From contig JBDRQI010000003.1 in assembly GCA_043826355.1 (NCBI GenBank), forward strand, positions 7,440 through 71,439: a DNA stretch of 64,000 bases. Direction: 5' to 3'. The translations under genes were made by a program, and so were the position numbers. The stretch's first letter is position 1. Each line of letters begins with the position of its first letter. Positions 3,740 through 64,000 of this stretch are shown here, in pieces. This DNA is from Candidatus Omnitrophota bacterium (GTDB lineage: Bacteria > Ratteibacteria > UBA8468 > MWAK01). The notes beneath the pieces are model-generated. The model saw only the letters and a list, made by a program, of their open reading frames with translations. It did no database searches and was not told the origin of the DNA.

Positions 3740-3780
3740 TGTAATTTACTGAAACGAGGACTATTTTTTTGCAACACTTC

Positions 3781-3912
3781 GCGTAATGTCAGCTGCAAAA
3801 CAAGCAATACGGAGGTTTGAGTATCCGGGGCTCGCCGGTTCTCCTGGCGAGAACACGGAGAGGCTCAAGCCGTAAGTTGCGTAGTTTTGTCTGATACGCA
3901 GAGTGTGTAGCA
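3781..3912 (+). ncRNA. Candidate structured RNA / repeat element, copy 1 (family shared with 46541-46740)
   Basis: Ends pair (UGUCAG..CAAAAC with GUUUUG..CUGAUA), internal hairpin CUCGCC/GGCGAG; homologous copy at 46.5 kb shows compensatory CUCACC/GGUGAG. Identity unknown. Confidence 0.3.
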
Positions 3913-3934
3913 AAAAAAACATCCGAGAGACCGA

Positions 3935-4423
3935 ATGATAGTGGCCGGATTTGACCCGGGACTGAACCGAACCGGTTTTGGAATTATCGAGAATTTAGCG
4001 CCGCTTTCGGTTCTGGGCTTCGGGGTAATTGCGCCCCGTGCCAGTAAAATTTTCGCGGAACGCTTATCCGAAATTTACGCCGGCGCCCGCCGGGTTCTGA
4101 AGGAGTATGCTCCGGACGTAATTGTGGTGGAAGAGATTTATTTTGCGAATAATCCCCAGACTACTCTTAAGATTGGGATTGTCCGGGGTCTTCTCTTTGC
4201 GGCGGCTCTGGAGCAAAAAATTGAAATCGCTTCCTTTTCGCCTGCGGAAGTAAAGATGGCGGTTGTCGGAAAAGGCAACGCCACCAAAGACCAGGTTGGT
4301 TTTCTGGTTGCCAGAATTTTGGGGATAAAAAAAGAAATTCCGGAAGACAGCGCAGACGCCCTGGCGGTTTCTCTTTGTTATCTCAGCCATCAAAAGTATA
4401 AGAGCAAATTATTGTTGGTGTAG
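3935..4423 (+). CDS. ruvC: Crossover junction endodeoxyribonuclease RuvC
   Basis: 162 aa, N-terminus MIVAGFDPGLNRTGFGII typical RuvC; followed by ruvA-ruvB. Confidence 0.9.
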   Translation: MIVAGFDPGLNRTGFGIIENLAPLSVLGFGVIAPRASKIFAERLSEIYAGARRVLKEYAPDVIVVEEIYFANNPQTTLKIGIVRGLLFAAALEQKIEIASFSPAEVKMAVVGKGNATKDQVGFLVARILGIKKEIPEDSADALAVSLCYLSHQKYKSKLLLV

Positions 4424-4504
4424 GGGAGGGGCTGTGCCCCTTCTCACAGTAGGACAGTCGTCTCGCTTGTCAAAACACGGGCGGGGATGTAACCCCGCCC
4501 CTAC
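4420..4504. repeat. GC-rich hairpin repeat element (GGGGAGGGG-type module plus second hairpin), upstream of ruvA
   Basis: gtaggggaggggctgtgcccc…cgggcggggatgtaaccccgcccctac; inverted termini GTAGGGG/CCCCTAC; related copy before leuC (61.26 kb) sharing tcgc(t/c)tgtcaaaa..cacggg and ending ctacaaa(a)atat immediately before the start codon. Confidence 0.55.
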
Positions 4505-5099: not shown

Positions 5100-5172
5100 T
5101 GCAACGGTGTCATTCCCGCAGACAGCAAGCGGGAATCCATTTTAGTAGGTTTGATGTCATAATTGATTCCCG

Positions 5173-6258: not shown

Positions 6259-6282
6259 GTAGTGCGACTCTGTCAGGGTCGC
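6259..6282. repeat. REP-like palindromic repeat GTAGTGCGAC(T/C)CT(T/G)TCAGGGTCGC
   Basis: One of >=5 copies (6259, 7743, 9310, 62630, variant 11610); forms hairpin GCGACCCT-TTC-AGGGTCGC; generates a spurious MRLCQGRP N-terminal extension on the downstream ORF. Confidence 0.6.
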
Positions 6283-7011: not shown

Positions 7012-7055
7012 ATTTCTCTCTCGGGGGAGAGGGTGAAAGGTAAAGGGTAATTTCT

Positions 7056-7742
7056 GTGCATATTGGAATCATTATGGACGGGAACGGCCGCTGGGCTAAA
7101 AAGCGCGGCCGGCCGAGGATTTTTGGCCACAAAACCGGCGCGGACCGGATTGATGAAATCGTGCGCGCCTGTCCGGATTTAGGCGTCAAATATCTATCGC
7201 TTTACGCTTTTTCCACGGAGAACTGGAACCGGCCGGGAAAAGAAGTCGGTTTTTTGATTAAACTTTTCGCGGAAAAGATAAAGAAGAAAACGGCCGGGAT
7301 GAAGAAGGAAGGCGTCCGGGTTCTATTTTTAGGCGACCGGACCGCTTTTCCGGAAAACCTGCAGAGCTTGATGGCGTACTGTGAATCTGAAACCGCATCC
7401 GGCCGGAAAGTTAACGTGGCACTCTGCCTTAATTACGGAAGCCGGGATGAAATCGTAAGGGCGGCGCGCAGAATCAGCGAAGAGGTGCAGGCCGGAAAAC
7501 TGAAACCGTCACTGATTACCGAAAACCTCTTCAGCCAATATCTTGACACCCGGGAACTGCCGCCGCCGGATTTAATAATCCGCACCAGCGGAGAGTTGCG
7601 GTTATCCAACTTTTTCCTCTTTCAATCCGCCTACGCGGAGTTATATTTTACCCAAACCCTCTGGCCGGATTTCAGCACCGGGGAATTCGCTTCCGCGCTT
7701 GCTGAGTTAAAAAAACGGAAACGGCGTTTCGGAGACGTTTAG
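7056..7742 (+). CDS. uppS: Undecaprenyl diphosphate synthase
   Basis: HIGIIMDGNGRWA motif at N-terminus; 228 aa. Confidence 0.9.
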   Translation: MHIGIIMDGNGRWAKKRGRPRIFGHKTGADRIDEIVRACPDLGVKYLSLYAFSTENWNRPGKEVGFLIKLFAEKIKKKTAGMKKEGVRVLFLGDRTAFPENLQSLMAYCESETASGRKVNVALCLNYGSRDEIVRAARRISEEVQAGKLKPSLITENLFSQYLDTRELPPPDLIIRTSGELRLSNFFLFQSAYAELYFTQTLWPDFSTGEFASALAELKKRKRRFGDV

Positions 7743-7799
7743 TAGTGCGACCCTTTCAGGGTCGCCTGCAGGGGAGGGGTTCTGTCTCCTCCCGCACCT
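7743..7799. repeat. Composite repeat: REP-like module + GGGGAGGGG…CCTCCC hairpin module
   Basis: gtagtgcgaccctttcagggtcgc followed by ctgcaggggaggggttctgtctcctcccgc; creates spurious MRPFQGR… extension of dxr ORF. Confidence 0.6.
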
Positions 7800-9020: not shown

Positions 9021-10274
9021 ATGACCCCTTACCATTCTTTGCCGCTCCAAAACATCTTCTCTTTTCTCAAGGATAAAGAACCTTTTGCGCTTCTGGAGAC
9101 CACCCGCTGCGACCCCGAAAACTTTCTTTCCTATATTTTTTATGAGCCGGATGGCAAGATTGAAATCAGCAATTATTCGGACCTGCCCCGGTTTTTCAAC
9201 CAGATAGAATCCTTTTTACGAAAAGGCTATTACCTGGCCGGATTCTTTTCTTACGAAGCCGGCAATTTCCTTAATGTAGGGGAGGGGCTACGAACCCTCC
9301 CGCTTTTACGTAGTGCGACCCTTTCAGGGTTGTCGTCTTTGTCTTTTCCCCTGGCCCGTTTTTATCTCTTCCGGAAACCGCTGGTATTTGACCACCGGTC
9401 CGGTCTTTTTCCCGGCAATTTCCAACCCGGAGGTTCGGAATTTCCCGAAAATTACACCCTGGAAAAACCCCGGCTCAACACCGGTTTTACGGAATACCAG
9501 AAGAACGTCGGCCGCATCAGAGAATTAATAAAAGCCGGAGACACTTACCAGGTCAACTATACCCTGAAATGCAACTTTAATTTCTCCGGTTCGCCTTTCG
9601 GCCTTTACCAAGACCTGCGGGAAAAACAGACGGTCGCTTATTCTGCTTTCATCAAAAACCGCGACTTTTCCCTGCTCTCTTTCTCTCCGGAACTATTTTT
9701 CCGCAAGGCCGGCCGGAAGATTATGGTCCGGCCGATGAAAGGCACCATCAGCCGGGGAAAAAATACCTGTCGGAACAGACAGCAAATGCAAATTTTGAAA
9801 CAGAGTCCCAAAGAACGTTCCGAAAACGTAATGATTGTTGACCTTTTGCGCAATGATTTAGGCCGGGTCTCCGAGGTGGGTACGGTCCGGACCGATTCGC
9901 TCTTTGATATTGAAGAATATGAAACACTTTTCCAGATGACTTCCACCATCTCCGGCATCCTGAGAGAAAACCTCTCTTTTGGGGAGTTATTTGAAGCCGT
10001 CTTCCCTTCCGGTTCGGTTACCGGCGCACCCAAAATAAGGACGATGGATATCATCCGGGAACTGGAAAAAGAGGCACGCGCCGTCTATACCGGAGCCTTG
10101 GGGATTTTCTTCCCGAACCGTGACGCAGTCTTTAACGTGGCTATCCGCACCCTTCGTATTACCGGGGAAGAAGGTGAAATGGGGGTCGGAAGCGGAATCA
10201 CCTTTGATTCCGATGCCGGGCGGGAGTATGAAGAGTGCAAACTGAAAGCGCTCTTTCTGACCAAAAAAATGTAA
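9021..10274 (+). CDS. pabB: Chorismate-binding enzyme, aminodeoxychorismate synthase component I-like (PabB/TrpE family)
   Basis: C-terminal chorismate-binding motifs (…SGSVTGAPKIRTMDII…YTGALGIF…); 417 aa; contains an in-frame repeat-element insertion (see 9286-9335). Confidence 0.65.
   Translation: MTPYHSLPLQNIFSFLKDKEPFALLETTRCDPENFLSYIFYEPDGKIEISNYSDLPRFFNQIESFLRKGYYLAGFFSYEAGNFLNVGEGLRTLPLLRSATLSGLSSLSFPLARFYLFRKPLVFDHRSGLFPGNFQPGGSEFPENYTLEKPRLNTGFTEYQKNVGRIRELIKAGDTYQVNYTLKCNFNFSGSPFGLYQDLREKQTVAYSAFIKNRDFSLLSFSPELFFRKAGRKIMVRPMKGTISRGKNTCRNRQQMQILKQSPKERSENVMIVDLLRNDLGRVSEVGTVRTDSLFDIEEYETLFQMTSTISGILRENLSFGELFEAVFPSGSVTGAPKIRTMDIIRELEKEARAVYTGALGIFFPNRDAVFNVAIRTLRITGEEGEMGVGSGITFDSDAGREYEECKLKALFLTKKM
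9286..9335. repeat. Composite GC-hairpin repeat (GGGGAGGGG module + REP-like module) located in-frame inside pabB-like CDS
   Basis: gtaggggaggggctacgaaccctcccgc…gtagtgcgaccctttcagggttgtcg; same modules as intergenic copies; encodes …VGEGLRTLPLLRSATLSGLSS… without stop. Confidence 0.6.
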
Positions 10275-10545: not shown

Positions 10546-11619
10546 ATGACAGTTAACCTGATACATATCCTGGCGGTCGTCTTTATTTTTGGGGTATTAA
10601 TCATCTCCCACGAACTCGGTCATTTCTGGGCCGCCCGGAAATGCGGGGTGAGGGTGGAATTGTTTACTTTTGGCTTCGGACCGAAATTATTCGGTTTCAA
10701 ACGGGGAGACACCCTCTACCAGGTTGCCCTGATTCCGTTCGGCGGCGCGGTAAAATTGGCCGGGGAAGATGGTTACGGTAAAGAAGAACCGAAAGGCGAT
10801 GAATATTTTGCCAAACCGGCCGGAAAGCGCGCCCTGATTCTTATTATGGGTTCGCTGCATAACTTTATTCTGGGTTTCCTGGTCTTTGTGCTCGTCTTTA
10901 TCCTGGGGATACAGACGGTCAATTACCGGCAGCCGCTGGTGGGCGAAATACAACCCGGTTTTCCGGCTCAAAGCATTGGAATTAAAAGTGGGGATTTAAT
11001 CACCCGGGTCGCCGGCAAGAAGGTGACCGATTGGCTGACCCTGTCCAAAGAAATTCACCGGTACCCGGGTCAGGAAATTAACCTGGAGGTTCTTCGGGAA
11101 AAAGAGGTCCTGAATTTCAAAGTTACCCCGAAGAGCGAAACGATTAAAACCGCGCAAGGAGAAGAGACTGTCGGTTTAATCGGTATTATACCGGCCGCAA
11201 CCAGGGAAAAGTTTGGTATTATCCCGGCGCTCGGCCGGGCCGGCAAAGAGACATTCCGGGTGGCCGGACTTATCTTCTACTACCTGGGAAAACTATTCAC
11301 CCGCGAACTTTCCACCCGGGAACTGGCCGGTCCGGTAGGCATTGCCCAGATGACCGGGCAGTTTGTGCAAACCGGTTGGAGCGGTTTTCTTTACTTTCTG
11401 GCGCTTTTAAGCGTGAACCTTTCCATCGTAAACCTGTTCCCTTTCCCGATGCTTGACGGCGGGCACGTTGCCGGCGTGCTGATCGAGCGCATCCGGAAAC
11501 GCAAGCCCAGCCGACGTTTCCTGGAAATCTCCCAAACGATCGGATTTGGCCTGATAATCCTCCTGGCGCTCTTCGTTACCTATAACGACATTTTAAGAAT
11601 TTTTAGCAAGCGACCCTGA
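10546..11619 (+). CDS. rseP: RIP metalloprotease RseP (site-2 protease)
   Basis: HELGHFWAAR zinc motif, PDZ region, C-terminal LDGG motif; 357 aa. Confidence 0.85.
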   Translation: MTVNLIHILAVVFIFGVLIISHELGHFWAARKCGVRVELFTFGFGPKLFGFKRGDTLYQVALIPFGGAVKLAGEDGYGKEEPKGDEYFAKPAGKRALILIMGSLHNFILGFLVFVLVFILGIQTVNYRQPLVGEIQPGFPAQSIGIKSGDLITRVAGKKVTDWLTLSKEIHRYPGQEINLEVLREKEVLNFKVTPKSETIKTAQGEETVGLIGIIPAATREKFGIIPALGRAGKETFRVAGLIFYYLGKLFTRELSTRELAGPVGIAQMTGQFVQTGWSGFLYFLALLSVNLSIVNLFPFPMLDGGHVAGVLIERIRKRKPSRRFLEISQTIGFGLIILLALFVTYNDILRIFSKRP

Positions 11620-11638
11620 AAAAGGGGTCAGACTACGC
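11610..11638. repeat. Variant REP-like palindrome (reverse orientation) overlapping rseP stop codon
   Basis: gcgaccctgaaaaaggggtcagactacgc resembles reverse complement of GTAGTGCGACCCTTTCAGGGTCGC. Confidence 0.4.
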
Positions 11639-11649
11639 AATCTTATCTG

Positions 11650-12762
11650 ATGACTCGCCGAAAGAAAACCTCTCGTCCGGTTCAGGTTGGTACCCTGGTC
11701 ATTGGCGGCGGCGCCCCTGTTTCCGTCCAGGGGATGACCAAGACGAAGACCGCAGACCTTAAAAAAACGCTGAATCAAATCATTTCCCTGAAAGATGCCG
11801 GCGCGGAGATTATCCGCCTGGCGATACGCGACCGGGAAGATTTAATTGCGCTTGAATCCCTTCGGAAAAAGACCGCGCTGCCCCTGGTGGCCGATATTCA
11901 TTTCCAAAGCGAACTGGCTTTAGCCGCCATCAAAGCCGGTGCGGACAAAATCCGGCTTAACCCCGGAAACATCAAAAACCCGGAAGAACTGAAGAAGATT
12001 ACCAGAGAAGCAAAAAAGAGAGAAGTTGCCATCAGGGTCGGGGTTAATTCCGGTTCTTTGAATTTTCCCCCTCATCATGCCTCTCCCCACAGGGGAGAGG
12101 GAAACAAATCAGTTCTTGCCTGCGCCATGGTTTCCGCAGCCAAAAACTACCTGAAAATTTTTGAAGCCGAAGATTTCCAAAATTTAATCTTTTCCCTTAA
12201 GTCGTCTTCGGTCCGAACTACCATCCTGGCAAACCGCATATTCAGCCGGCAATTCGATTATCCCCTGCACCTGGGAATTACCGAATCGGGCCGGGGTAAT
12301 ATAGCCCTGGTCAAAAGCGCAATCGGCATCGGCGCTCTCCTGGAAGAAGGAATCGGCGACACGATCCGGGTATCCCTGTCCGAATCTCCGGAAGAAGAAA
12401 TTAGGGCCGGACGTCAGATTCTTCAGGCGCTGGGATTGAGATATTTTTACCCGGAAATTATCTCCTGTCCAACCTGCGGTCGTTGCCGGGTTAATCTTTT
12501 TGGAATCTTGCGAAAAGTGGAGGCCGGACTCAAAGGGCTGCCCGGTTATCCCCGGGATTATGCGGGACTCAAGGTTGCGGTAATGGGCTGTGAGGTTAAT
12601 GGCCCGGGTGAAGCCGCAGCCGCCGATATCGGCATTGCCGCCGGCCGCAAAACCGGTCTTCTTTTTGCAAAAGGAAGGAAGGTTGCCAGAACCAGCGAAA
12701 GAGAACTACCGTCCATCCTTTTGAGGGAAATTCTCAAATTGCGAAGAATACGCGGCAAATGA
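11650..12762 (+). CDS. ispG: 4-hydroxy-3-methylbut-2-en-1-yl diphosphate synthase (GcpE)
   Basis: …DIHFQ…, HLGITESG, C-terminal CPTCGRC Fe-S motif; 370 aa. Contains perfect palindrome CCTCTCCCC-aca-GGGGAGAGG at ~12080-12100 inside the CDS. Confidence 0.9.
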   Translation: MTRRKKTSRPVQVGTLVIGGGAPVSVQGMTKTKTADLKKTLNQIISLKDAGAEIIRLAIRDREDLIALESLRKKTALPLVADIHFQSELALAAIKAGADKIRLNPGNIKNPEELKKITREAKKREVAIRVGVNSGSLNFPPHHASPHRGEGNKSVLACAMVSAAKNYLKIFEAEDFQNLIFSLKSSSVRTTILANRIFSRQFDYPLHLGITESGRGNIALVKSAIGIGALLEEGIGDTIRVSLSESPEEEIRAGRQILQALGLRYFYPEIISCPTCGRCRVNLFGILRKVEAGLKGLPGYPRDYAGLKVAVMGCEVNGPGEAAAADIGIAAGRKTGLLFAKGRKVARTSERELPSILLREILKLRRIRGK

Positions 12763-13261: not shown

Positions 13262-15880
13262 GTGCAAAGTTTTGAAATAAGGCAAAAATATCTTGATTTT
13301 TTTAAGGAAAAAGGGCATACCGTTGTGCCGGGAATTTCCCTGATACCTCCGGAGGACCCGACATTACTGTTCACTTCGGCCGGAATGGTTCCCTTCAAGA
13401 ATTTCTGGACCGGTTCCGGTGAAATCCCGTATGTCCGGGCTGCGTCCTGCCAGAAATGCCTTCGGGCCGGCGGCAAAGACAGCGATTTGGATAATGTGGG
13501 TTTTGATTTTCGGCATAACACCTTTCTGGAAATGTTGGGTAATTTTTCTTTTGGAGACTATTTTAAAGAAGGCGCGATTGAATTTGCCTGGGAATTTCTG
13601 CTGCAACGCCTGAAACTGCCGGAAACAAATCTTTGGGTATCGGTTTACACCGAAGACCGGGAAGCGGTTGAAATCTGGAAAAAATACCTGCCGGATAAAC
13701 GGATTGTCCGGCTGGGCGCAAAAGATAATTTCTGGGGACCGGCCGGCGAAACCGGCGTTTGCGGTCCCTGTTCTGAAATATATTTTGACCGCGGTCCGGC
13801 TTTTTCCTGCGGGAAAATTTCCTGCAAACCGGGCTGTGATTGTGAAAAATACCTGGAGTTCTGGAACCTTGTTTTTCCCCAATTCAATAAAACCAAAAAC
13901 GGCGAACTTCTGCCTTTAAAGCGCCGCGGGATAGATACCGGAATGGGTCTGGAGCGAATTACCACACTGTGTCAAGGGGCTGAATCAAACTTTGACACCG
14001 ACCTGTTCCTGCCGATAATCAAAAAACTGGAAACGCTTTCCGGGATTATTTACCGGAAAAACAACGATACCCGGTCCGCTTTTCGCGCGGTAGTTGACCA
14101 TGTTCGCGCTTTAACCTTTACCATTGCGGAAAATATAGTTCCCGGTAACGAAGGAAGGGGATATGTCGTTCGCCGGATTTTGAGGCGGGCGGTGCAATTT
14201 TTGCAGGTGCTGCAGGTGGACAAACCGCTTCTTGCCGAACTCGTTCCCGAAGTTGTCCGGATAATGGGCGCATATTATCCGTATCTCCCGGAACGGGAGG
14301 GATTCGTCCGGGAAACGATTGCCGGCGAAGAAGACCGTTTTCTGAATCTTCTTTCAGAAAGCCGAACCCTTTTCAAGAGGTTCAAAACAGAATTTAAGGA
14401 TAAAACCCTGCCCGGCAAAATCGCTTTCCAACTTTACGACACCCACGGTCTTCCGCTGGACACAATCAAGGAAATCGCGGTTGAAAATGGCCTTTTTTTT
14501 GATGAAACCGGGTTTGAACTGGAAATGACCAGACAAAAAGCGGCCGGCCGCAAAGCTACCTCTTTTGATCTGATTGCCGACCGCAGTTGCCTGGCCGGGC
14601 TTTCACCCACCAAGTTTGTCGGTTACCAAACCGGTACTGCCCGGTCTTCCGTACTGGCAATTATCCCGGCTAAAAATAACCGGTATTCTCTGGTTTTATC
14701 GGAAACACCTTTTTACCCGGAACGGGGCGGACAGCAGGGAGATGCCGGAATAATCAGCGGGGACGGTTTTCGGTTTAATGTCTCGGAAACCAGGGTGGAC
14801 GAATCCGGCTTTATCCACCATCTGGGTTTATTCCAAAAAGGAACTGCGGTCAAGAATGACGCTGTAACCGCACAGGTGGATTCAGAAATACGCCAACAGA
14901 TTGCGGCAAACCATACCGCCACCCATCTTCTCCATTCGTCCCTGCGCCAAATTTTGGGTAACGAAGTAAAACAGGCCGGTTCCCTGGTGACGCCTGAATC
15001 GCTGCGTTTTGACTTTCTTTTTTCCGGAGAAATAGAACAAGAGAAACTTGGCAGCGTTGAAGAATTAGTTAATGAAAAAGTGCGGTCAAACCTGCCGGTG
15101 ACGATAACGGAAAAAGAATTAAAGGAAGCCATGGCCGAAGGCGCCATCGCTTTATTTACCGAAAAATACGGCGAAAAAGTCCGGGTAATCACCGCCGGTA
15201 ATTTCAGCAAAGAAGTTTGCGGCGGAACCCACCTTGATTACACCGGCGGCATCGGCCTCTGCCTGTTTGCCAGTTTCGCTTCGATCGGACAGGGGGTGAA
15301 ACGGATTGAAGCGGTTACCGGAAAAGCTGCCTATTCCCGGATAAAGGAACGGGAACGGCACCTTTTGGAACTGGCTGCCTGCCTGAAGGTGGAACCGGCC
15401 TTGATTCGCCTGGAAATAGAACGGCGCACGGAAGAACACCGGAAGCTGAAAATAAAATCCGACGCCTTTTTTTCCGCCTATCTCCACCGGGAGGCTGACA
15501 AAATAATCAAGGGCAAAAAATCTGTTGCCGGAATTAATCTTCTGACGACAACCCAGTTGTTGCTTTCACCGGAAGAGGCAAGGACTTTGATTGATTATCT
15601 TAAAAAAAAGTCTCCGGAAAGCGTCATACTGGTACTGCTTTCCGGAACGGATAAATCCCAAATTTTTCTGGGCTTAACTCCCGATATTATCCCCCGGGGT
15701 TTAAAAGCCAACGAAATCTTACGACAAGCCGCCGGGTTGCTGGGCGGTGGAGCAGGGGGCCGGGCCGATTTTGCCCAGGCCGGTTTGAAAGGGAGAGTAA
15801 ACCTGGAAGAAGCCGAAAAGACCCTGATAAAAATTTTGACAAATACTGATGGAAAACCCGGGCGGAACCACCACGGATAG
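13262..15880 (+). CDS. alaS: Alanine--tRNA ligase
   Basis: 872 aa; class II core, editing domain HTATHLLH and CGGTH motifs. Confidence 0.95.
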   Translation: MQSFEIRQKYLDFFKEKGHTVVPGISLIPPEDPTLLFTSAGMVPFKNFWTGSGEIPYVRAASCQKCLRAGGKDSDLDNVGFDFRHNTFLEMLGNFSFGDYFKEGAIEFAWEFLLQRLKLPETNLWVSVYTEDREAVEIWKKYLPDKRIVRLGAKDNFWGPAGETGVCGPCSEIYFDRGPAFSCGKISCKPGCDCEKYLEFWNLVFPQFNKTKNGELLPLKRRGIDTGMGLERITTLCQGAESNFDTDLFLPIIKKLETLSGIIYRKNNDTRSAFRAVVDHVRALTFTIAENIVPGNEGRGYVVRRILRRAVQFLQVLQVDKPLLAELVPEVVRIMGAYYPYLPEREGFVRETIAGEEDRFLNLLSESRTLFKRFKTEFKDKTLPGKIAFQLYDTHGLPLDTIKEIAVENGLFFDETGFELEMTRQKAAGRKATSFDLIADRSCLAGLSPTKFVGYQTGTARSSVLAIIPAKNNRYSLVLSETPFYPERGGQQGDAGIISGDGFRFNVSETRVDESGFIHHLGLFQKGTAVKNDAVTAQVDSEIRQQIAANHTATHLLHSSLRQILGNEVKQAGSLVTPESLRFDFLFSGEIEQEKLGSVEELVNEKVRSNLPVTITEKELKEAMAEGAIALFTEKYGEKVRVITAGNFSKEVCGGTHLDYTGGIGLCLFASFASIGQGVKRIEAVTGKAAYSRIKERERHLLELAACLKVEPALIRLEIERRTEEHRKLKIKSDAFFSAYLHREADKIIKGKKSVAGINLLTTTQLLLSPEEARTLIDYLKKKSPESVILVLLSGTDKSQIFLGLTPDIIPRGLKANEILRQAAGLLGGGAGGRADFAQAGLKGRVNLEEAEKTLIKILTNTDGKPGRNHHG

Positions 15881-16057
15881 AAACCGTGGTGCCGCGCTCC
15901 ATCTTCGGCGGAACCCGCCGAAGCACGTCCTCCTTCGCGGTGCGGACACTAGGTACCGAGGCGGCAAAGCCGCCTCACTTGCGTCCACGCTACGGCGGAC
16001 ACCCTAAGACGCATTCCTCCCCGGGCAGAGCCCGGGTCTTTCTGCGAAGGCGGGTGA
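15881..16057 (+). promoter_or_regulatory. GC-rich multi-hairpin leader/spacer upstream of sigma-factor gene
   Basis: Three perfect hairpins (CTTCGGCGG..CCGCCGAAG; GAGGCGGC..GCCGCCTC; CCCGGGC..GCCCGGG) closed by GUGCCGCG/CGCGGUGC pairing; GC far above flanks. Confidence 0.3.
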
Positions 16058-29132: not shown

Positions 29133-30188
29133 TCATTGCGCAGACGCGAAATTAGAGGATAAAACAAAATATTCTTTTAACTTTGACGCCTGAAGATTGT
29201 TGGAAATTCGAAGTTTCTGTTGCCGGCCGGAAATAAAGAAACGCCGCAAGTATTCAACCTCTTCGTAATCAACCCGGTAAGAAGTATCCATCAGACCACT
29301 GAGCGCCTGGCGTAAAATCTCGCGTTGCAGGGAAATGGGAAGAGATAAAAATTCCCGGCGGGGGATTTTATATCCCTCCGCTGCGTTTGTAGGGGCTCGA
29401 TTCATCGAGCCCGATGCGGGTCGCATGAATGCGACCCCTACATTATTAAAAAGACAGCGGGATTTTAAAAAATCAGCGGCCTGGCCGGAAATGTATTGGT
29501 AATCGGCGTTCAATATCTCGGCCATCCGAAAAAGGGCTCCCTTGATGTTGGGATTATACTCCGCAAGCAACGGCAATAGTTCCAGCCGGATACGGTTACG
29601 CTGAAATTTCTGGTCCAGGTTGGTCGCATCGCTGACAAACCGGTAATCTTTTTCCGCCAGAAATCCGGATATCTCAACCCGGCTTACAGAAAGCAGCGGC
29701 CGGATGAGATTGATTTTGGAACCGCTTGAAACAGGACGATAGGGTGTTATTCCGGAAAGACCCTGCAATCCTGTTCCGCGAATAAGGTGTAAAATAATTG
29801 TCTCGGCCTGGTCATCTAACTGGTGACCGGTCGCAATGGAATGACAGGAAAAATGGTCGGCGGTTTTTTTTAAAAAATCATAGCGCGCCTTCCGGGAAGC
29901 ATCCTCAGCCGCGCCCGGTTTCAAGGAACCTTTTCCGGCCAGAAACGGAACACGGTATTTGGCAGAGAGTTCCTTGCAGAAAACCGAATCATTTTCGGAA
30001 AACGGCCGGAGTCCATGGTCAAAATGCCCGGCAAAGAGACCGAATTTCAGGCGGGTTTGCCATACCCGCAAAAGATGGAAAAGACAGACTGAGTCCGGGC
30101 CCCCGGAAAACGCCAGGAGCACCCGATCCCCTTTTTTGACCAGGGAATGCTCGATAATATACGCTAAAACCTTATTTTGTATTTTCAT
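29133..30188 (-). CDS. tilS: tRNA(Ile)-lysidine synthetase
   Basis: PP-loop LLAFSGGPDSV, …GHQLDDQAET… motif; start inferred at MKIQNKVL abutting mutM stop; contains in-frame repeat insertion at 29389-29442. Confidence 0.8.
   Translation of the reverse strand: MKIQNKVLAYIIEHSLVKKGDRVLLAFSGGPDSVCLFHLLRVWQTRLKFGLFAGHFDHGLRPFSENDSVFCKELSAKYRVPFLAGKGSLKPGAAEDASRKARYDFLKKTADHFSCHSIATGHQLDDQAETIILHLIRGTGLQGLSGITPYRPVSSGSKINLIRPLLSVSRVEISGFLAEKDYRFVSDATNLDQKFQRNRIRLELLPLLAEYNPNIKGALFRMAEILNADYQYISGQAADFLKSRCLFNNVGVAFMRPASGSMNRAPTNAAEGYKIPRREFLSLPISLQREILRQALSGLMDTSYRVDYEEVEYLRRFFISGRQQKLRISNNLQASKLKEYFVLSSNFASAQ
29389..29442. repeat. 54-bp palindromic repeat element (GTAGGGG…two hairpins…CCCCTAC) inserted in-frame in tilS
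   Basis: gtaggggctcgattcatcgagcccgatgcgggtcgcatgaatgcgacccctac: hairpins GCTCGA-ttca-TCGAGC and GGGTCGCAT-gaa-TGCGACCC with inverted termini; translates to …VGVAFMRPASGSMNRAPT… in tilS frame. Confidence 0.6.
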
Positions 30189-30994
30189 ATCTGGCAGGAC
30201 GGGCAGAAATAGGTGGAACGGCTTCCGTCTTTTTGGACTCTGACCAGATTTCCGCAACATCGGCACGGCTGTCCTTTCCGCCGATAAACAAAAAGGCTGT
30301 TTTGGAATTTTCCGTAGCTGCCGTCCGGTTTCAGGTAATCCTGGATTGATGTCCCGCCTGCCTTGAGCGCTTCCTTAAGCGTTGATTTTATCGCCCGATA
30401 GAGTTTTTTTGTTTCGGCCGGCTGTAAAGCGGAGACCCTCCGGTCCGGATGAATGCCGGCCCGGAAAAGCGCCTCGGTCGCATAAATATTGCCCAGACCG
30501 GCTATTCTCTGCTGGTCAAGCAGAAACGTCTTGATACGACTGTTTTTCCCGAAGATGATCTGTTTCCAACATTCAAAGGTAAAATCGGGCGTCAAAGGTT
30601 CCGGACCTAAATTTAATTTTATTTCCGGGTCTTCACGGCGCAGGGTAAACCCGCCGAAACGCCGCAGGTCATGGTAATAAAGCCGGGACCCGTCCTGGAA
30701 CAAAAAAAGGACGTGATGGCGAATCTTGGGCTCCGATCCGGAAGAGTAGAGGAGTTGTCCGGAAAGTTTAAGGTGTACCTGAAGGTACAAGGACGGCTTG
30801 AGGTCAAAGATGAGGTATTTACCTCTGCGTCGGATATTACCAATTTCCCTGCCGATAATCTTTCGTTGAAAAAAAACCGGGGAAGTCTCTTTAATCAGTT
30901 TGGGAACCAGGATTTTTACTGCCTGAATTTTTTTACCGACTAAATCTTTAACCAATTGTCGGCGAATAGTCTCAACTTCCGGTAATTCCGGCAT
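30185..30994 (-). CDS. mutM: Formamidopyrimidine-DNA glycosylase
   Basis: Start MPELPEVE (catalytic Pro2/Glu3), C-terminal zinc finger CxxC…CxxC; ~269 aa from that start. Confidence 0.85.
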   Translation of the reverse strand: MPELPEVETIRRQLVKDLVGKKIQAVKILVPKLIKETSPVFFQRKIIGREIGNIRRRGKYLIFDLKPSLYLQVHLKLSGQLLYSSGSEPKIRHHVLFLFQDGSRLYYHDLRRFGGFTLRREDPEIKLNLGPEPLTPDFTFECWKQIIFGKNSRIKTFLLDQQRIAGLGNIYATEALFRAGIHPDRRVSALQPAETKKLYRAIKSTLKEALKAGGTSIQDYLKPDGSYGKFQNSLFVYRRKGQPCRCCGNLVRVQKDGSRSTYFCPSCQI

Positions 30995-40132: not shown

Positions 40133-40203
40133 GCGGGGTTAGTTTAGTGGTAAAACTACAGCCTTCCAAGCTGTTAATGAGGGTTCGATTCCCTCACCCC
40201 GCT
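40133..40203 (+). tRNA. tRNA-Gly (anticodon UCC)
   Basis: Cloverleaf: acceptor GCGGGGT/ACCCCGC, D-arm GTTT-AGTGGTA-AAAC, anticodon stem ACAGC/GCTGT with loop CTTCCAA, T-arm GAGGG-TTCGATT-CCCTC, discriminator T; no encoded CCA; 3' end overlaps pdxA stop by ~10 nt. Confidence 0.85.
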
Positions 40204-41147
40204 CTGAAAGAAAGGCGCAGAGCTAGTTTAATTGCCGCTTCCATGCTGCGGCTATCCGCGCGATTTTTGTAGGCCAGACCGAATGCCGTACCGTGGTCCG
40301 GACTGGTACGGATAAAAGGCAGGCCAACGGTAATATTAACTCCCCGGTCAAAATAGAGCGCCTTAAACAAAGGCAGAATCTGGTCGTGGTAGGCGGATAC
40401 CATCAGTTGAAACCCTCCCTGGCAATAAATACGGTAAGCGGAATCGGCCGGAACCGGTCCGGAAATATTCAGACCTTCTTTTAACAATAACTCCGTAGCC
40501 GGTTTAAAAATGGTCTTCTCTTCTTTTCCGAGGCAGCCTCCTTCGCCGGCGTGAGGATTCAAACCGCAAATCAGAATTTTTGGATTTTTGATTCCCAGGC
40601 TGGACTTTAAAAAACGGTTGGCAAGCTTCACCTTACGGAAAATCAGATCCGCGGTTATCTTCCGGGAAACATCGGAGAGAGAAAGATGGGCGGTCAGAAG
40701 AATGAAGCGAAATTTTCCGGCTGAAAAGAGCATTCCATAATCGGCAATGCCGAATTTTTCCGCCAGAACCTCGGTATGGCCGCAGAATTTGAAACCGGCC
40801 AGATTAATCGCTTCTTTGGAAACCGGAGCGGTAACCAATGCTTGAATTTTGCCGCTTTTCAAAAAAGAGATTGCATCCGAAAAATATCCGTAAGCGGCCT
40901 TTCCGGTTAAGGAGTTGACCTCTCCGACGGTAAATGTCCGGGTGTTGATTATTCCGGAGCTGATAACTGCAACGCCTTTTGGCACCGCCAACCGGGTACG
41001 CTTCAAAACCGGTCCGTCTCCGAAAAGCAAAAATTTTGTCTCCGGACCGGCTTTAATACCGGCCAGCGCTTTTAACGTAACCTCCGGACCGATGCCGGCT
41101 GGGTCACCAATAGTAATACCTAAAGAGATTTCAGTCCGCTTCCTCAA
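40194..41147 (-). CDS. pdxA: 4-hydroxythreonine-4-phosphate dehydrogenase
   Basis: …LGITIGDPAGIGPEV…, …HAGEGG…, …TSPDHGTAF… PdxA blocks; 317 aa. Confidence 0.85.
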   Translation of the reverse strand: MRKRTEISLGITIGDPAGIGPEVTLKALAGIKAGPETKFLLFGDGPVLKRTRLAVPKGVAVISSGIINTRTFTVGEVNSLTGKAAYGYFSDAISFLKSGKIQALVTAPVSKEAINLAGFKFCGHTEVLAEKFGIADYGMLFSAGKFRFILLTAHLSLSDVSRKITADLIFRKVKLANRFLKSSLGIKNPKILICGLNPHAGEGGCLGKEEKTIFKPATELLLKEGLNISGPVPADSAYRIYCQGGFQLMVSAYHDQILPLFKALYFDRGVNITVGLPFIRTSPDHGTAFGLAYKNRADSRSMEAAIKLALRLSFRAG

Positions 41148-46483: not shown

Positions 46484-46540
46484 TTGTGTAATATGTCGTT
46501 TTTCTTCAAGCTTGGGTGTCTGGTTCGTAAAACTTCACGG

Positions 46541-46740
46541 AGTGTCAGCTACAAAACAAGCAGGACGGAGAGGTGAGTATCCGGGGCTCACCTGTAATCT
46601 AGGTGAGAGCCCGGCCAGCAACTGACCCACTTCCGTCTCTTCGGCGTATGGCCGGGACAAGTGTTGTTCTCAACACGGAGAGGCTCGCCTCGCAGTTGCG
46701 CAGTTTTGTCTGACATGCAGGGCGTTTCACGGACCAGACA
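46541..46740 (+). ncRNA. Candidate structured RNA / repeat element, copy 2 (extended variant of 3781-3912) inside gspG-gspH spacer
   Basis: Shares 5' GUGUCAGCUACAAAACAAGCAGGACGGAG, central GAGUAUCCGGGGCUC and AACACGGAGAGGCUC, and 3' GUUGCGCAGUUUUGUCUGACAUGCAG with copy 1; ~70-nt extra internal arm. Confidence 0.3.
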
Positions 46741-59689: not shown

Positions 59690-61210
59690 ATGGGACGTTT
59701 AATTAGAATTTTTGATACCACTTTACGGGATGGCGAGCAATCGCCGGGTGCAAGTCTCACCGTAGCAGACAAAATACGCATCGCCCGGCAGCTGGAACAC
59801 CTCGGCGTTGACGTTATTGAAGCCGGTTTTCCCATCTCTTCGCCGGGTGATTTCCAGTCAGTGCGGGAAGTGGGAAAGATAATTAAAAAATGCCAGGTGG
59901 CTGCGCTGGCGCGCGCCTTGCCGCAGGACATTGACGCCGGACTTAAAGCCCTGGAAACTGCGGTCAAACCCAGACTTCACGTTTTTCTGGCCACTTCCAA
60001 AATTCACCGTCAGTATAAATTAGGCAAAGCCAAGTCAGAAATTTTACGAATTGCCGTGGAAGCGGTCAGCCGCGCCCGAAAAGGTATTGCGGATGTGGAA
60101 TTTTCTCCGGAAGACGCCACCCGCACCGAACCGGAATTCCTCCTGGAAGTTGCCGAAGCGGCGGCGGAAGCCGGCGCCGGAACCATCAACATACCGGATA
60201 CCGTCGGTTACACGGTTCCGGAAGAATTCGGAAAATTAATCGTTTTCCTGCGCAGCCGTCTTGACAAAAAAATTCGGATAAGCGTTCATTGCCACAATGA
60301 CCTTGGTCTGGCGGTCGCCAACAGTTTAGCGGCCCTGGCCGCCGGCGCCGATCAGGTTGAAGTGGCCGTCAACGGCATTGGCGAACGGGCCGGCAACGCC
60401 TCGCTGGAAGAGGTTGCGGTCGGTCTTCACGTCCGGCGCGATTCCTGGAAATTGAAGATTAACATCAACCTCGCGGAAATTTACCGCACCAGTCGGCTGG
60501 TCAGTAACCTGACCGGCCTAATCGTCCAGCGAAACAAGGCGGTTGTCGGTGAAAACGCGTTTGCCCACGAGGCCGGCATCCACCAGGATGGAATCCTGAA
60601 AGACCGCCGGACCTATGAAATAATAGAACCGGCGCTAATCGGCGTCCCGGAAAGCGTGCTGGTTTTAGGCAAACATTCCGGACGGCACGCCCTGGCAAAC
60701 CGGTTGCTCCGGCTCGGTTACCGGCTCAAAGATACCGAATTGCAAAAGATATTTATTCGCTTCAAGGAATTGGCGGATAAGAAGAAGGAGGTTAACGACC
60801 AGGACCTGGTAGCGCTGATGGAAGAGGTCCTGATGCCTCTAACCGAAGTATATACCCTGGATTATCTTTCCACTGCGTCCGGAACCAATACCGTTCCTAT
60901 GGCCACGGTCCGTCTGAAAAAAGGCAAGGAAATTCTACAGGCGGTTTCCTCCGGCGACGGACCGGTGGATGCCGCCTGTCATGCGGTCGACCAGTTGACC
61001 GGTATTTCGGCGCGGCTGACCGATTACCGCATTACCGCGGTGACCGGAGGCAAAGATGCGCTCGGAGAGGCTTCCCTGAAGATTGTTATTGATGACCGGG
61101 AAATACCGGGCCGGGCGGTAAGCACCGACATCATTGAAGCCAGCGTCAAGGCATACCTGAATGCGGTTAACCGACACCTTCAAAACAAGCGCATTAGCGC
61201 CAAACAGTAG
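59690..61210 (+). CDS. leuA: 2-isopropylmalate synthase
   Basis: …DTTLRDGEQSPG…, HxH metal motif (…SVHCHNDLGLA…), C-terminal LeuA regulatory domain; 506 aa. Confidence 0.9.
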   Translation: MGRLIRIFDTTLRDGEQSPGASLTVADKIRIARQLEHLGVDVIEAGFPISSPGDFQSVREVGKIIKKCQVAALARALPQDIDAGLKALETAVKPRLHVFLATSKIHRQYKLGKAKSEILRIAVEAVSRARKGIADVEFSPEDATRTEPEFLLEVAEAAAEAGAGTINIPDTVGYTVPEEFGKLIVFLRSRLDKKIRISVHCHNDLGLAVANSLAALAAGADQVEVAVNGIGERAGNASLEEVAVGLHVRRDSWKLKININLAEIYRTSRLVSNLTGLIVQRNKAVVGENAFAHEAGIHQDGILKDRRTYEIIEPALIGVPESVLVLGKHSGRHALANRLLRLGYRLKDTELQKIFIRFKELADKKKEVNDQDLVALMEEVLMPLTEVYTLDYLSTASGTNTVPMATVRLKKGKEILQAVSSGDGPVDAACHAVDQLTGISARLTDYRITAVTGGKDALGEASLKIVIDDREIPGRAVSTDIIEASVKAYLNAVNRHLQNKRISAKQ

Positions 61211-61259
61211 GATAGGCGTCCTCATTCGCTAAAATTTCGGCGGACAAGTCTCGCCTGTC

Positions 61260-61354
61260 AAAATGCACGGGAGGGGCTATGTCCGCCTCCCGCGGGCTGA
61301 GTTTCACCAAGTCCGCCTCTGGCGGGTGGGGATTTAAATCCCGCTTCTACAAAT
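61260..61354. repeat. GC-hairpin repeat element (GGGAGGGG…CCTCCC + two further hairpins) in leuA-leuC spacer
   Basis: gggaggggctatgtccgcctccc, ccgcctctggcgg, ggggatttaaatcccgc; homologous to 4420-4504 element; ends cttctacaaatATG. Confidence 0.55.
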
Positions 61355-62620
61355 ATGACACTTACCGAAAAAATTCTGGCAAAAAAAGCGGGGCGCTTGG
61401 AACTCAAACCGGGCGAATTCGTATTGGTTGACGTTGACCTGGGTTTCGCCAACGACCTGACCGGACCGCCGGCCATCAAGGAATTTGAGAAGTATGGAAA
61501 CAAGGTATTTGCTCCGGAAAAAGTAGCTCTGATTCCGGACCATTTTACTCCCTGCAAAGATATTGACAGCGCCGGTCTGGTCAGGATACTGCGCGAATTC
61601 AGCCTTAAACAGAATATCAGCCGGTTTTACGAAATCGGCCGGATGGGCGTAGAACACGCGCTCCTGCCGGAAGAAGGGCTGATTCTGCCCGGAACAATAG
61701 TCATCGGCGCGGACAGCCATACCTGCACCCACGGTGCGCTCGGCGCCTTCGCCACCGGCGTTGGAAGCACCGACCTGGCTTTCTTTCTCCTGACCGGTAA
61801 GGCCTGGTTCCGGGTTCCGGAAACGATTGCCGTGGAATTTTCCGGAAAATTACCGGAATGGGTCGGCGGTAAAGATTTAATCCTTTATCTTATTTCCAAA
61901 ACCGGGGTGGACGGCGCTCGTTATAAAGCTTTTGAATTTATCGGTCCGGTCATTTCCCGTCTTCCGGTTGATGACCGCTTCTCCATGTGCAACATGGCAA
62001 TTGAAGCCGGTGCTAAAAACGGCATCATCGCGCCGGACAGCATAACCCTGGATTACTTGCGCCAGGTAAATCCGGTCTGGGTTAACAGCCACTCCGATTT
62101 TACGCTGAGCCCGGACTCCGGAGCCGTCTATTCGAAAAAAATAGAAATAGATGTTTCCAAACTGGAACCGTTTGTGGCTGCGCCTGATCTGCCTTCAAAC
62201 GGTTACCCCGTTTCCCAACTTTCCGGCGTCAAGCTTGACCAGGTTCTAATCGGCTCCTGCACCAACGGAAGAATTTCGGACTTAAAGATAGCGGCCGGAA
62301 TACTGAAAGGAAAGAAGGTGTCAAAAGACCTGCGTCTGATTGTCATTCCGGCCACTCAAAAAATCTGGCAGGAAGCCTTGGACCAGGGTTACCTGAACAC
62401 GTTTGTTAAGTGCGGCGCAGCAGTGAGTACGCCAACCTGCGGACCGTGCCTGGGCGGACACATGGGCGTACTGGCCGAAGGAGAAGTGGCGCTTTCAACC
62501 ACCAACCGCAACTTTGTCGGCCGGATGGGGCATCCCGGAAGCAAGGTCTATCTTTCTTCGGCGTCCGTAGCAGCCGCCAGTGCCCTAACCGGCCGGATTA
62601 CCCATCCCTCCGAAGTGTAA
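61355..62620 (+). CDS. leuC: 3-isopropylmalate dehydratase large subunit (short, archaeal-type LeuC/HACN)
   Basis: 421 aa; aconitase-family Cys ligands (…CTNGR…, …CGPCLG…). Confidence 0.85.
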   Translation: MTLTEKILAKKAGRLELKPGEFVLVDVDLGFANDLTGPPAIKEFEKYGNKVFAPEKVALIPDHFTPCKDIDSAGLVRILREFSLKQNISRFYEIGRMGVEHALLPEEGLILPGTIVIGADSHTCTHGALGAFATGVGSTDLAFFLLTGKAWFRVPETIAVEFSGKLPEWVGGKDLILYLISKTGVDGARYKAFEFIGPVISRLPVDDRFSMCNMAIEAGAKNGIIAPDSITLDYLRQVNPVWVNSHSDFTLSPDSGAVYSKKIEIDVSKLEPFVAAPDLPSNGYPVSQLSGVKLDQVLIGSCTNGRISDLKIAAGILKGKKVSKDLRLIVIPATQKIWQEALDQGYLNTFVKCGAAVSTPTCGPCLGGHMGVLAEGEVALSTTNRNFVGRMGHPGSKVYLSSASVAAASALTGRITHPSEV

Positions 62621-62629
62621 TGCGCCAGC

Positions 62630-62706
62630 GTAGTGCGACCCTTTCAGGGTCGCTTTGTTAGAACAGGCGTTTTGTATGTAAAAATGCAGGGGAGGGGCTA
62701 TGTCCC
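62630..62706. repeat. Composite repeat: REP-like module + GGGGAGGGG-ctatgt-CCCCTCCC hairpin in leuC-leuD spacer
   Basis: gtagtgcgaccctttcagggtcgc … aaaatgcaggggaggggctatgtcccctccc; creates spurious MRPFQGR… extension on leuD ORF. Confidence 0.6.
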
Positions 62707-62719
62707 CTCCCAAAAAATT

Positions 62720-63223
62720 ATGAAATTACAAGGCAAAACCTGGAAATTCGGTGACAATATCAACACCGACCTGATTATTCCGGCACGGTACATGACCGCT
62801 TACGAAGCCGCGGAACTCGGCAAACACTGTATGGAGGATGCCGACCCGGAATTTTCAAGAAAAATAGCGCCCGGAGATATTGTCGTCGCCGGAGAAAATT
62901 TCGGCTGCGGTAGCAGCCGGGAGCATGCGGTCCTGGCTTTGAAAGGCGCCGGCATCTCCGCAATAATCGCGAAATCATTTGCGCGCATCTTCTTCCGCAA
63001 CGCCATTAATACCGGACTGCCGATTATCGAATCACCGGAAGCCGCGTCCGCGATTAAAGAAGGAACTGAAATCATAATTGACCTGACTGCCGGACAGATT
63101 GAAGACCGAAGCGAAAACCAACATTTTACAATCAAAGAATTTCCGGAATTCTTAACCGAAATCGTGGAAAACGGAGGACTTTTAAAATGGGCGACCAGAA
63201 AAAAAAAGGAACCTACAAAATAG
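62720..63223 (+). CDS. leuD: 3-isopropylmalate dehydratase small subunit
   Basis: MKLQGKTWKFGDNINTDLIIPARY… typical LeuD start; ~167 aa. Confidence 0.85.
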   Translation: MKLQGKTWKFGDNINTDLIIPARYMTAYEAAELGKHCMEDADPEFSRKIAPGDIVVAGENFGCGSSREHAVLALKGAGISAIIAKSFARIFFRNAINTGLPIIESPEAASAIKEGTEIIIDLTAGQIEDRSENQHFTIKEFPEFLTEIVENGGLLKWATRKKKEPTK

Positions 63224-64000
63224 GCGTCATACCCGGAGACGGAGTAGGGCCGGAGATAATTCGGGAAGGATTAAAAGTTTTGGAAGCGGTCAGACAAAAA
63301 TTCTCCCTTAAATTTGAATTGGTCAATTACGACTTTGGCGGAGAACGCTATCTGAAGACCGGCGAAATTCTGCCGGACAGCGCGCTTGAGGAGTTTCGGA
63401 AACTGGACGCTATCTACCTGGGAGCGGTTGGCCACCCGGACGTAAAGCCCGGCATCCTGGAACACGGTCTGCTTTTGAAACTGCGTTTTACGCTTGACCA
63501 GTACATAAACCTGAGGCCGGTCAAACTCTATCCCGGAGTCTGGACGCCTATCAAAGATAAAGGCCCGGAACAGATAGACTACGTCGTAGTGCGTGAAAAT
63601 ACCGAAGGCGCCTACACCGGAATGGGCGGTTGTTTCAAAAAAGGGACGCCGGATGAGATTGCGGTCCAGGAAGACGTCAACACCCGTAAAGGTGTGGAAC
63701 GTTGCATCCGTTACGCCTACAAGGTCTGCCGGCGCCGTAACCGGATGAAAAAAATAACCTGCTGCGATAAAGCCAACGTCCTGACTTACGCCGGAGACCT
63801 CTGGCGCCGGACCTTTGTTGACGTGGGCCGGGAATTTCCTGGCATCAAACAGGATTATGCTTTTGTGGACGCCACCACGATGTGGATGATTAAAAATCCG
63901 GAATGGTTTGACGTAATCGTCACCAGCAATATGTTCGGGGACATCATCACCGACCTGGCCGCGGTAACCCAGGGCGGCCTGGGAATCGCCGCCGGCGGGA
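63186..64000 (+). CDS. leuB: 3-isopropylmalate dehydrogenase (3'-truncated by window edge)
   Basis: …[15 protein letters not shown]… NAD-binding start; runs off window end; overlaps leuD by ~38 bp through an A9 tract. Confidence 0.75.

Follow-up and report, generated by a model that had tools for sequence, protein, structure and literature searches.

The 64,000-nucleotide (nt) stretch analysed here (the window; positions 7,440 to 71,439 of contig JBDRQI010000003.1, from a Candidatus Omnitrophota bacterium) carries short GC-rich hairpin repeats, typified by the palindrome GTAGTGCGACTCTGTCAGGGTCGC at 6259-6282, which form a real, non-random repeat system. They are of the known kind in which GTAG-tagged repetitive extragenic palindromes (REPs) accompany a REP-associated tyrosine transposase (RAYT), and they represent a new family of that kind in a new host lineage. 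Very probably, the window repeats are GTAG-tagged REPs that are mobilised by a RAYT encoded elsewhere in the genome. The evidence lies in the anatomy of the hairpins, the non-random GTAG tag, compensatory changes in the stems, turnover among relatives and the adjacency of a RAYT gene and REPs in a syntenic relative; both the role of a RAYT in moving these REPs and its presence in this genome are what we infer. A preliminary description of the window had called the palindrome REP-like, and the elements indeed fit the definition of GTAG-tagged REPs. The shared GTAG/GCAG head, the link to a RAYT, the dimer in tilS and the fast turnover go beyond that description.

Two modules recur in the window (Table 1). 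A search with the module A consensus GTAGTGCGACCCTTTCAGGGTCGC, allowing up to 3 mismatches, returned four copies, all on the forward strand, of which those at 7742-7765 and 62630-62653 are perfect and those at 6259-6282 and 9310-9333 have 2 mismatches each; 100 shuffles returned none. A fifth, decayed copy on the reverse strand includes the rseP stop codon, and the repetition of the 24-bp palindrome reported earlier is real. Module B follows the pattern (T)G[T/C]A[G/C]-GGGAGGGG-loop-CC(C)CTCCC, with a 3' arm of the type CCCCTCCC, and occurs in five copies, all on the forward strand (starting at 4420, 7768, 9276, 61265 and 62686), with an GGGGCGGGG variant on the reverse strand at 4479-4504. 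Copies of neither module are expected by chance. Of the six or more copies of this hairpin that had been listed, these five stand. The hairpin at 12080, CCTCTCCCC-aca-GGGGAGAGG, was rejected as a module B and assigned to another repeat family, since it has no GTAG head and a different stem and falls within ispG, in a region that varies while staying in frame. Several coordinates had been off by 1-13 nt.

Both modules begin with an unpaired GTAG (or GCAG) directly 5' of the stem, spelled GTAG in every module A and GTAG or GCAG in module B, with a single GCAC. The stems of the window hairpins measure 7-9 bp and the loops 3-8 nt; computed fold energies run from -11 to -21 kcal/mol when modules stand alone and from -28 to -36 kcal/mol in composites, and folding z-scores fall between about -2 and -5.4. 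A scan for headed hairpins found at least four further types in the window that open with GTAG or GCAG, and hairpins resembling GTAGGACAG...CTGTC lie at 4449 and about 61243. When all perfect GC-rich hairpins of the window with stems of 7 or more and loops of 3-9 are considered, GTAG stands 0-1 nt from the stem in 7 of the 26, where about 0.8 would be expected, and one more has a GCAG head. Some 15 GTAG hairpins occur in the 64-kb window, 11 of them extragenic. A search of the whole window against Rfam at gathering thresholds matched a 5S rRNA and a tRNA-Gly only and left the hairpins unmatched.

Copies are arranged as head-to-tail mixed pairs (A+B) and as heads-outward inverted pairs. The modules combine in either order, as had been noted (A-B at 7742 and 62630, B-A at 9276), and a fixed A+B composite unit was rejected, given this varying order and spacings of 2, 8 and 32 nt. 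Each of the two heads-outward doublets (4420-4504 and 29389-29441) is built from two different hairpin types, those of the second being GTAGGGGCTCGATTCATCGAGCCC and GTAGGGGTCGCATTCATGCGACCC.

Stem changes, turnover among relatives and the RAYT gene

The copies extend well beyond the window, where the preliminary description had left them to be sought. Matches to a degenerate 20-nt module A core, used in place of the whole 24-mer, number more than 118 among genome stretches, and the 24-mer itself occurs unaltered in more than 120 metagenome stretches. Related metagenome-assembled genomes hold from several to many copies. Candidates for the comparison of stems were chosen by the frame GTAG-N-GCG....CGC alone, with the inner stem unfiltered, and mixed stem arms were absent from all 260 of them. 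The inner stems pair as ACCC/GGGT (173, a count biased by the way in which the loci were fetched), AGGC/GCCT (36), AACC/GGTT (2), ACCT/AGGT (2) and GCCC/GGGC (1). In the relative L124, the copy in the ruvB-lptB spacer, orthologous to the one at 6259, carries a compensatory A-T to G-C change that gives the stem GCGGCCCT/AGGGCCGC. These sequence comparisons show stem complementarity kept by compensatory changes and point to a structure under selection. Behind the G[T/C]AG-GG head, the sampled loci hold 57 perfect-stem types.

The window PabB matches P0001, a protein in NCBI from a Candidatus Omnitrophota bacterium metagenome-assembled genome, at 100% identity. The gene order yebC-ruvCAB-lptB-uppS-dxr-pabB-rseP-ispG-recX-alaS is common to the window and to L121, L122/L123 and L124, whose PabB proteins are about 77-80% identical to that of the window, and a metagenome scan returned closer relatives of 85-93% nucleotide identity (L197, covering 52.4-64 kb of the window; L134, covering 18.6-31.4 kb; L202; L194). 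Orthologous spacers with 80-93% identical flanks hold different REPs or none. The uppS-dxr spacer contains A+B in the window and A'+B in L122, and is without a REP in L121, where the genes overlap, and in L124, where it is 13 nt long. The leuA-leuC and leuC-leuD spacers hold entirely different repeats in L197, between flanks of 89-93% identity: the former has a different REP set and the latter is without the 62630 module A. The B+B' dimer of the window ruvC-ruvA spacer is found in the recX-alaS spacer of L122, and the 29389 dimer sits between EF-G and yebC in L121 and, in inverted form, in a different spacer of L197. The L194 ortholog of the decayed copy at 11610-11636 is an intact module A. 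Because orthologous spacers of relatives that are 80-90% identical differ in REP content, turnover is fast, and the pattern resembles that of mobile or rapidly replaced elements, not that of conserved gene-specific regulators.

Some copies lie in frame within genes. The B+A composite at 9276-9333 had been assigned to the dxr-pabB spacer but falls inside the pabB open reading frame (ORF; 9021-10274), where it encodes VGEGLRTLPLLRSATLSGL as residues 86-105. The insert is absent from PabB homologs of 59-63% identity (P0009-P0011) and likewise from the more distant P0024, P0031 and P0040, and all relatives of 77-81% identity have an insert there, with differing peptides. The pabB DNA of four genomes shares the junction aat/aagGTAGGGG, which is followed by differing hairpin bodies. 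In an AlphaFold model of PabB (mean predicted local distance difference test score 79.7), the longer of two low-confidence segments spans residues 87-105. The dimer at 29389-29441 encodes NVGVAFMRPASGSMNRAPT in the linker that joins the PP-loop and C-terminal domains of TilS, and the tilS ortholog of L134 has a module B (encoding NVGEGLRPLP) at the same junction.

A profile search showed that Y1_Tnp genes directly adjoin the module A hairpin in the fetched loci. One of these loci, L245, is contig JAPLMK010000117.1 of the Omnitrophota metagenome-assembled genome (MAG) GCA_026387085.1, the same MAG to which L106 and the window-syntenic L124 belong. Its RAYT gene, P0168 (3001-3468), is preceded by GTAGCGCGACCCTTTCAGGGTCGC, which ends 5 nt before the ATG, and its stop codon is overlapped by GCGACCCTGAAAGGGTCGCACTAC; additional A and A' copies lie upstream. 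A RAYT gene bracketed by inverted module A copies is a textbook REPtron, here in a relative of the window organism. P0168 scores 107.1 bits on the NCBIfam model NF047646 REP_Tyr_transpos, above its cutoff of 80. In its HUH and Tyr motifs it can be aligned with E. coli RayT, to which it is 28% identical over 92 residues. A tRNA-Ala(CGC) gene occupies 2768-2840 of L245, within the REP cluster upstream of the RAYT gene.

RAYT genes also stand beside these REPs in L161, L189, L204, L158 and L247. Those of L158 and L204 and P0122 (L247, Ignavibacteria) score 104-117 bits on NF047646 and have module A or a variant of it as flanks, and those of L161 (3349-3687) and L189 (2108-2440) are decayed by internal deletion and still bracketed by module A. 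The RAYT of L023 (1548-2090) has an in-frame stop, a lone module A about 120 nt upstream and flanks made of another hairpin, GGAGTGCATCAGCTTGCTGATGC. The RAYT clade to which P0168 belongs spans Zixibacteria, WOR-3, Omnitrophota, anammox Planctomycetes, Elusimicrobiota and others.

The mechanism that we propose would treat the REPs as non-autonomous elements, recognised as single-stranded DNA hairpins by the RAYT, an HUH/Y1 enzyme and kin of IS200 TnpA, which presumably nicks and rejoins them. The Omnitrophota lineage of the window carries many hairpin types with the head alone in common, and these gather shortly after stop codons and between the genes of operons, singly, in head-to-tail mixed pairs (A+B) or in inverted pairs with heads outward. 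If the reading frame stays open, REPs persist within genes as peptides in surface loops or linkers, as in pabB and tilS.

Weighing the alternatives

Several points weigh against mobilisation by a RAYT. No RAYT or Y1 gene was found in the 64-kb window, either by phmmer with E. coli RayT or with a jackhmmer profile run against six-frame ORFs, and the cognate enzyme was seen in relatives only. Inverted doublets, or REPINs (REP doublets forming hairpins), are the proposed replicating unit, and the A and B modules are mainly singletons or head-to-tail mixed pairs instead; the window copies do not take the form of two near-identical inverted REPs at fixed spacing, with doublets outnumbering singletons. 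Current RAYT activity is uncertain, because several of the RAYT copies adjacent to module A (L161, L189, L023) are decayed. To our knowledge, no species has yielded in vivo proof that a RAYT transposes REPs; the evidence elsewhere is cleavage and rejoining in vitro. Finally, the 154 exact module-A copies were sorted by context using crude gene calls, and 75 lie between co-directional genes (48 sense, 27 antisense), 17 between convergent and 8 between divergent genes, 18 inside called ORFs and 36 at contig edges. The mild 48:27 sense bias hints at transcript-level selection on top of mobility.

This bias also bears on the possibility, which we regard as rather unlikely, that the hairpins are primarily host RNA elements kept by selection, acting, once transcribed within operons, as blocks to 3'-5' exonucleases, as processing sites or on translation of the next gene; module B, for instance, would pair its GGAGG motif with CCUCC. 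E. coli REPs are known mRNA stabilisers. The RNA hairpins of the window are stable, the base changes of the copies at 6259 and 9310 leave sense-strand G-U wobbles, and the intergenic A and B copies are all sense, in co-directional strings of genes and 0-45 nt past stop codons. However, 36% of the exact copies between co-directional genes are antisense, copies also occur between convergent or divergent genes and inside ORFs, and identical elements flank RAYT genes; the content of orthologous spacers is not conserved among close relatives, which argues against gene-specific regulation. The strict orientation dependence expected of an RNA-only element was rejected, the sense bias being just 64%. 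A role as intrinsic (Rho-independent) terminators was likewise discarded, as no T-run follows the intergenic copies at 6259, 7742/7768 and 62630/62686; weak T-tails were flagged for the pabB-internal copies and the antisense 4479-4504 copy alone. An effect at the RNA level is compatible with RAYT-mobilised REPs as a secondary, co-opted effect, and by analogy with E. coli REPs, protection of 3' ends and decoupling of neighbouring genes would be plausible side-effects.

A hairpin shared with another enzyme family raises a different origin, that the repeats are remnants or miniature inverted-repeat transposable elements of an IS200/IS605-type insertion sequence and not RAYT-dependent REPs. This is very unlikely. 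In Acidobacteriota and Flavobacteriales, IS200-type TnpA genes, which score 64-66 bits on NCBIfam NF033573 (cutoff 55), have as their flanks the 20-nt hairpin GTGCGACCCTTTCAGGGTCG lacking the GTAG head, and gene-less inverted pairs of this hairpin are numerous in Pyrinomonadaceae. Against this, every copy in the window, Omnitrophota, Zixibacteria and Ignavibacteria has the GTAG head, and the enzymes beside GTAG-headed copies score 104-117 bits on NF047646 and 26-34 bits on NF033573, below its cutoff; the orientation of hairpin to gene is opposite to that at IS200-type loci, and the window holds neither TnpB nor TnpA.

The untagged GTGCGACCCTTTCAGGGTCG element is a separate, cross-phylum element with a common hairpin. 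It brackets genes at L049 (1290-1810), L015 (6545-7134), L021 and L026, in the orientation opposite to that seen beside RAYT genes, and its gene-less inverted pairs are followed by an CCGGGGGCGTTGCCCCCGG hairpin at many Pyrinomonadaceae loci (L002, L010, L034 and others). In at least six phyla, GTGCGACCCTTTCAGGGTCG is the cognate flank of Y1 enzymes from two distantly related families, RAYT and IS200-type, and the IS200-type enzymes beside the untagged hairpin are only remotely similar to RAYTs. Since identity over 20 nt is unlikely to arise by convergence, hairpin capture or common descent is possible. Switches of REP class at orthologous RAYT genes have been described by Nunvar et al. 2013 (PMC3686654).

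Together with the conserved junctions, the presence of one hairpin beside two Y1 families leads to a more speculative extension, to which we give little credence: the hairpin bodies may act as exchangeable cassettes at fixed GTAG junctions, with HUH enzymes swapping or capturing modules as they cleave and rejoin DNA site-specifically at the tag. In pabB (four genomes), in tilS and in uppS-dxr, differing bodies follow a conserved 5' junction (aatGTAGGGG, or an equal position in the spacer). Were it true, cassette exchange would reach into essential genes and produce hypervariable protein loops.

Also very unlikely is the idea that the hairpins are binding sites of chromosomal proteins such as gyrase, IHF or other nucleoid factors and serve chromosome organisation. 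It draws on analogy with the bacterial interspersed mosaic elements (BIMEs) of E. coli, which are bound by such proteins; nothing in the sequence points to it, and the 57 perfect-stem types fit poorly with one protein that recognises a duplex. That the repeats are artefacts of assembly or chimerism (collapsed repeats), a worry of the preliminary description, can practically be dismissed even though contigs tend to break at copies, as the independent Logan contig L001 is 100% identical to the window from 61297 to 64000, a span that takes in both the 62630 and the 62686 copy, orthologous copies come from relatives in other samples and from other assemblers, and the pabB and tilS frames stay open through their in-frame copies. 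L001 itself breaks right after the module B variant at 61265-61291.

Feature positions, gene calls and other repeats

The headed hairpins of the window are collected in Table 1. An intact counterpart of the degenerate pair at 61207-61259, GTAGGACAGGCGTCCCGCCTGTC, is found in L089.

Table 1. Headed hairpin repeats of the window and their gene contexts
Feature	Position	Strand	Context
Module B, imperfect 3' arm	4420-4445	+	Head TAG is the ruvC stop; left member of heads-outward dimer
Degenerate GTAG-GACAG...CTGTC-type hairpin	4449-4471	+	Between the two members of the ruvC-ruvA dimer
Module B' (GTAG-GGGCGGGG-ttacat-CCCCGCCC)	4479-4504	-	ruvC-ruvA spacer; right member of heads-outward dimer
Module A (GTAGTGCGACTCTGTCAGGGTCGC)	6259-6282	+	ruvB-lptB spacer, 12 nt upstream of lptB start 6295; spurious GTG ORF start at 6262
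Module A, perfect	7742-7765	+	Abuts uppS stop (TAG 7740-7742)
Module B (GCAG-GGGAGGGG-ttctgt-CTCCTCCC)	7768-7793	+	Head-to-tail with module A at 7742; dxr start 7826
Module B	9276-9301	+	In frame in pabB; peptide VGEGLRTLP
Module A	9310-9333	+	In frame in pabB; peptide RSATLSGL; 2 substitutions, both sense-strand G-U wobbles
Decayed module A	11610-11636	-	Forward strand reads GCGACCCTGAAAAAGGGGTCAGACTAC; rseP stop TGA in loop region
Heads-outward REP dimer (GTAGGGGCTCGATTCATCGAGCCC-gatgc-GGGTCGCATGAATGCGACCCCTAC)	29389-29441		In frame in tilS (ORF 29133-30266, - strand)
Degenerate GTAG-headed hairpins (GTAGGATAGGCGTCCTC, then GGACAAGTCTCGCCTGTC)	61207-61259	+	Head TAG is the leuA stop
Module B variant (GCAC-GGGAGGGG-ctatgtcc-GCCTCCC)	61265-61291	+	leuA-leuC spacer
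GTAG-headed hairpin (GTAGAAGCGGGATTTAAATCCCC...)	61311-61350	-	4 nt upstream of leuC start
Module A, perfect	62630-62653	+	9 nt past leuC stop; opens spurious GTG ORF at 62633
Module B (GCAG head)	62686-62711	+	GGAGG Shine-Dalgarno-like motif in stem, then ATG in loop

The spurious N-terminal extensions predicted in the preliminary description are borne out: ORFs starting at 6262, 7745 and 62633 open inside REPs, and the starts at 6295 for lptB and 7826 for dxr fit ortholog lengths of 238 and 397 residues. For leuD, the expected miscall was found in the Logan contig, whose gene (L001 1388-1927) starts at the ATG at 62684-62686, overlapping the GCAG head, and has 179 residues; the true start at 62720 gives 167. 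Stop codons, too, are supplied by the repeats: ruvC (4421-4423) and leuA (61208-61210) each terminate at the TAG of a GTAG head, and the rseP stop TGA (11617-11619) lies inside a REP, so REP insertion has remodelled the 3' ends of these three genes. REPs also break Omnitrophota MAG assemblies, insert peptides (pabB, tilS) and mimic a Shine-Dalgarno motif with an ATG, and gene prediction in these lineages would benefit if GTAG hairpins were masked.

Other repeats accompany the headed hairpins. Within ispG (ORF 11650-12762), positions 12060-12100 form a hypervariable in-frame segment of CCTCTCCCC/GGGGAGAGG-type hairpins, encoding for example SPQRGEGKGEG, and in this segment L121, L122 and L124 exceed the window by 19-54 residues; untagged hairpins of a similar kind occur in the lptB-uppS spacer (7012-7055). 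A dispersed untagged family, GTCATTCCCGC-N9-GCGGGAAT, is found at 5107-5140 (ruvA-ruvB), between ruvB and lptB in L121, and downstream of ispG in L122 and L124, and a related GTCATTGCGAGC...GCAATC hairpin type occurs in L197 and L121. The 177-nt spacer after alaS (15869-16036) holds four perfect GC-rich hairpins and is absent from L121, L122 and L124, where alaS abuts the sigma-factor gene.

A conserved element of 150-190 nt occurs twice on the forward strand of the window (3762-3934 and 46518-46700) and lies in different spacers in L121 (14290-14446), L122 (7850-8013) and L124 (888-1052). RNAalifold gives it a rod-like fold of 43 pairs, 16 of them with compensatory changes, and it has no match in Rfam even at E<=1; it may be a divergent 6S-like RNA or a new small RNA. 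The ordinary RNA genes of the window are those for 5S rRNA (726-843) and tRNA-Gly(TCC) (40133-40204).

Comparison with known systems

Like IS200/IS605 elements, the system described here involves an enzyme of the Y1_Tnp (Pfam) superfamily and recognition of a DNA hairpin, and the identical 20-nt hairpin is found with such elements in other phyla. It differs in that the adjoining enzymes score as RAYTs, the hairpin orientation is reversed, TnpB is absent and the copies are gene-less. Rickettsia palindromic elements (RPEs) are similar as palindromic repeats that lie in frame in genes and add peptides at tolerant sites. Unlike RPEs, whose length is about 100-150 bp and which are not known to be linked to a RAYT, the inserts here are GTAG REPs of 26-58 bp, and the short RPE-4 and RPE-6 have themselves been equated with REPs (PMC3733652).

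The REPIN-RAYT systems of Pseudomonas (Bertels and Rainey 2011, PMC3116915) share the heads-outward inverted doublets and the presence of the same doublet at non-orthologous sites; unlike REPINs, the A and B modules occur mostly alone or in head-to-tail order, and the members of a doublet are of different types rather than near-identical. With the REP/BIME elements of E. coli and their RayT (TnpA-REP, yafM), the repeats have in common a GTAG head joined to an imperfect palindrome, and a Y1/HUH enzyme with HUH and Tyr motifs whose gene is bracketed by inverted REPs. In contrast to E. coli REPs, their hairpin sequence is unrelated, their stems are shorter and simpler (a perfect 8-bp stem with a 3-5 nt loop), and far more hairpin types reside together. 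Their fast turnover, including the repeated reuse of one in-frame site, makes them useful material for studying how REPs spread.

The closest correspondence is with the GTAG superfamily, which Di Nocera, De Gregorio and Rocco 2013 (PMC3733652) defined by a GTAG tag followed by a palindrome with stems of 6-13 bp. That work described several families per genome, dimers of the head-head, tail-tail and head-tail kinds, and sites near the 3' ends of ORFs, with in-frame intragenic copies that encode 20-30 residues and N-terminal ORF extensions that are probably untranslated; the families include those of Opitutus terrae and Rhodopirellula baltica, of the Planctomycetes-Verrucomicrobia-Chlamydiae (PVC) group. 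The window repeats agree with this in their unpaired head (here also GCAG and GCAC), GC-rich stems of 7-9 bp, short loops, multiple families, dimers, positions at ORF 3' ends, in-frame copies, N-terminal extensions and a RAYT flanked by repeats. The hairpin sequences of the modules were not found in the supplements of that study or in the relevant literature searched, and the literature search returned no paper pairing Omnitrophota with REPs. Unlike most described GTAG families, in which head-tail dimers are rare, mixed head-to-tail A+B pairs are prominent here, and the host belongs to the uncultured phylum Omnitrophota. The REP-RAYT system is thereby extended to an uncultured phylum that is related to the PVC group and has a hairpin repertoire of unusual richness.

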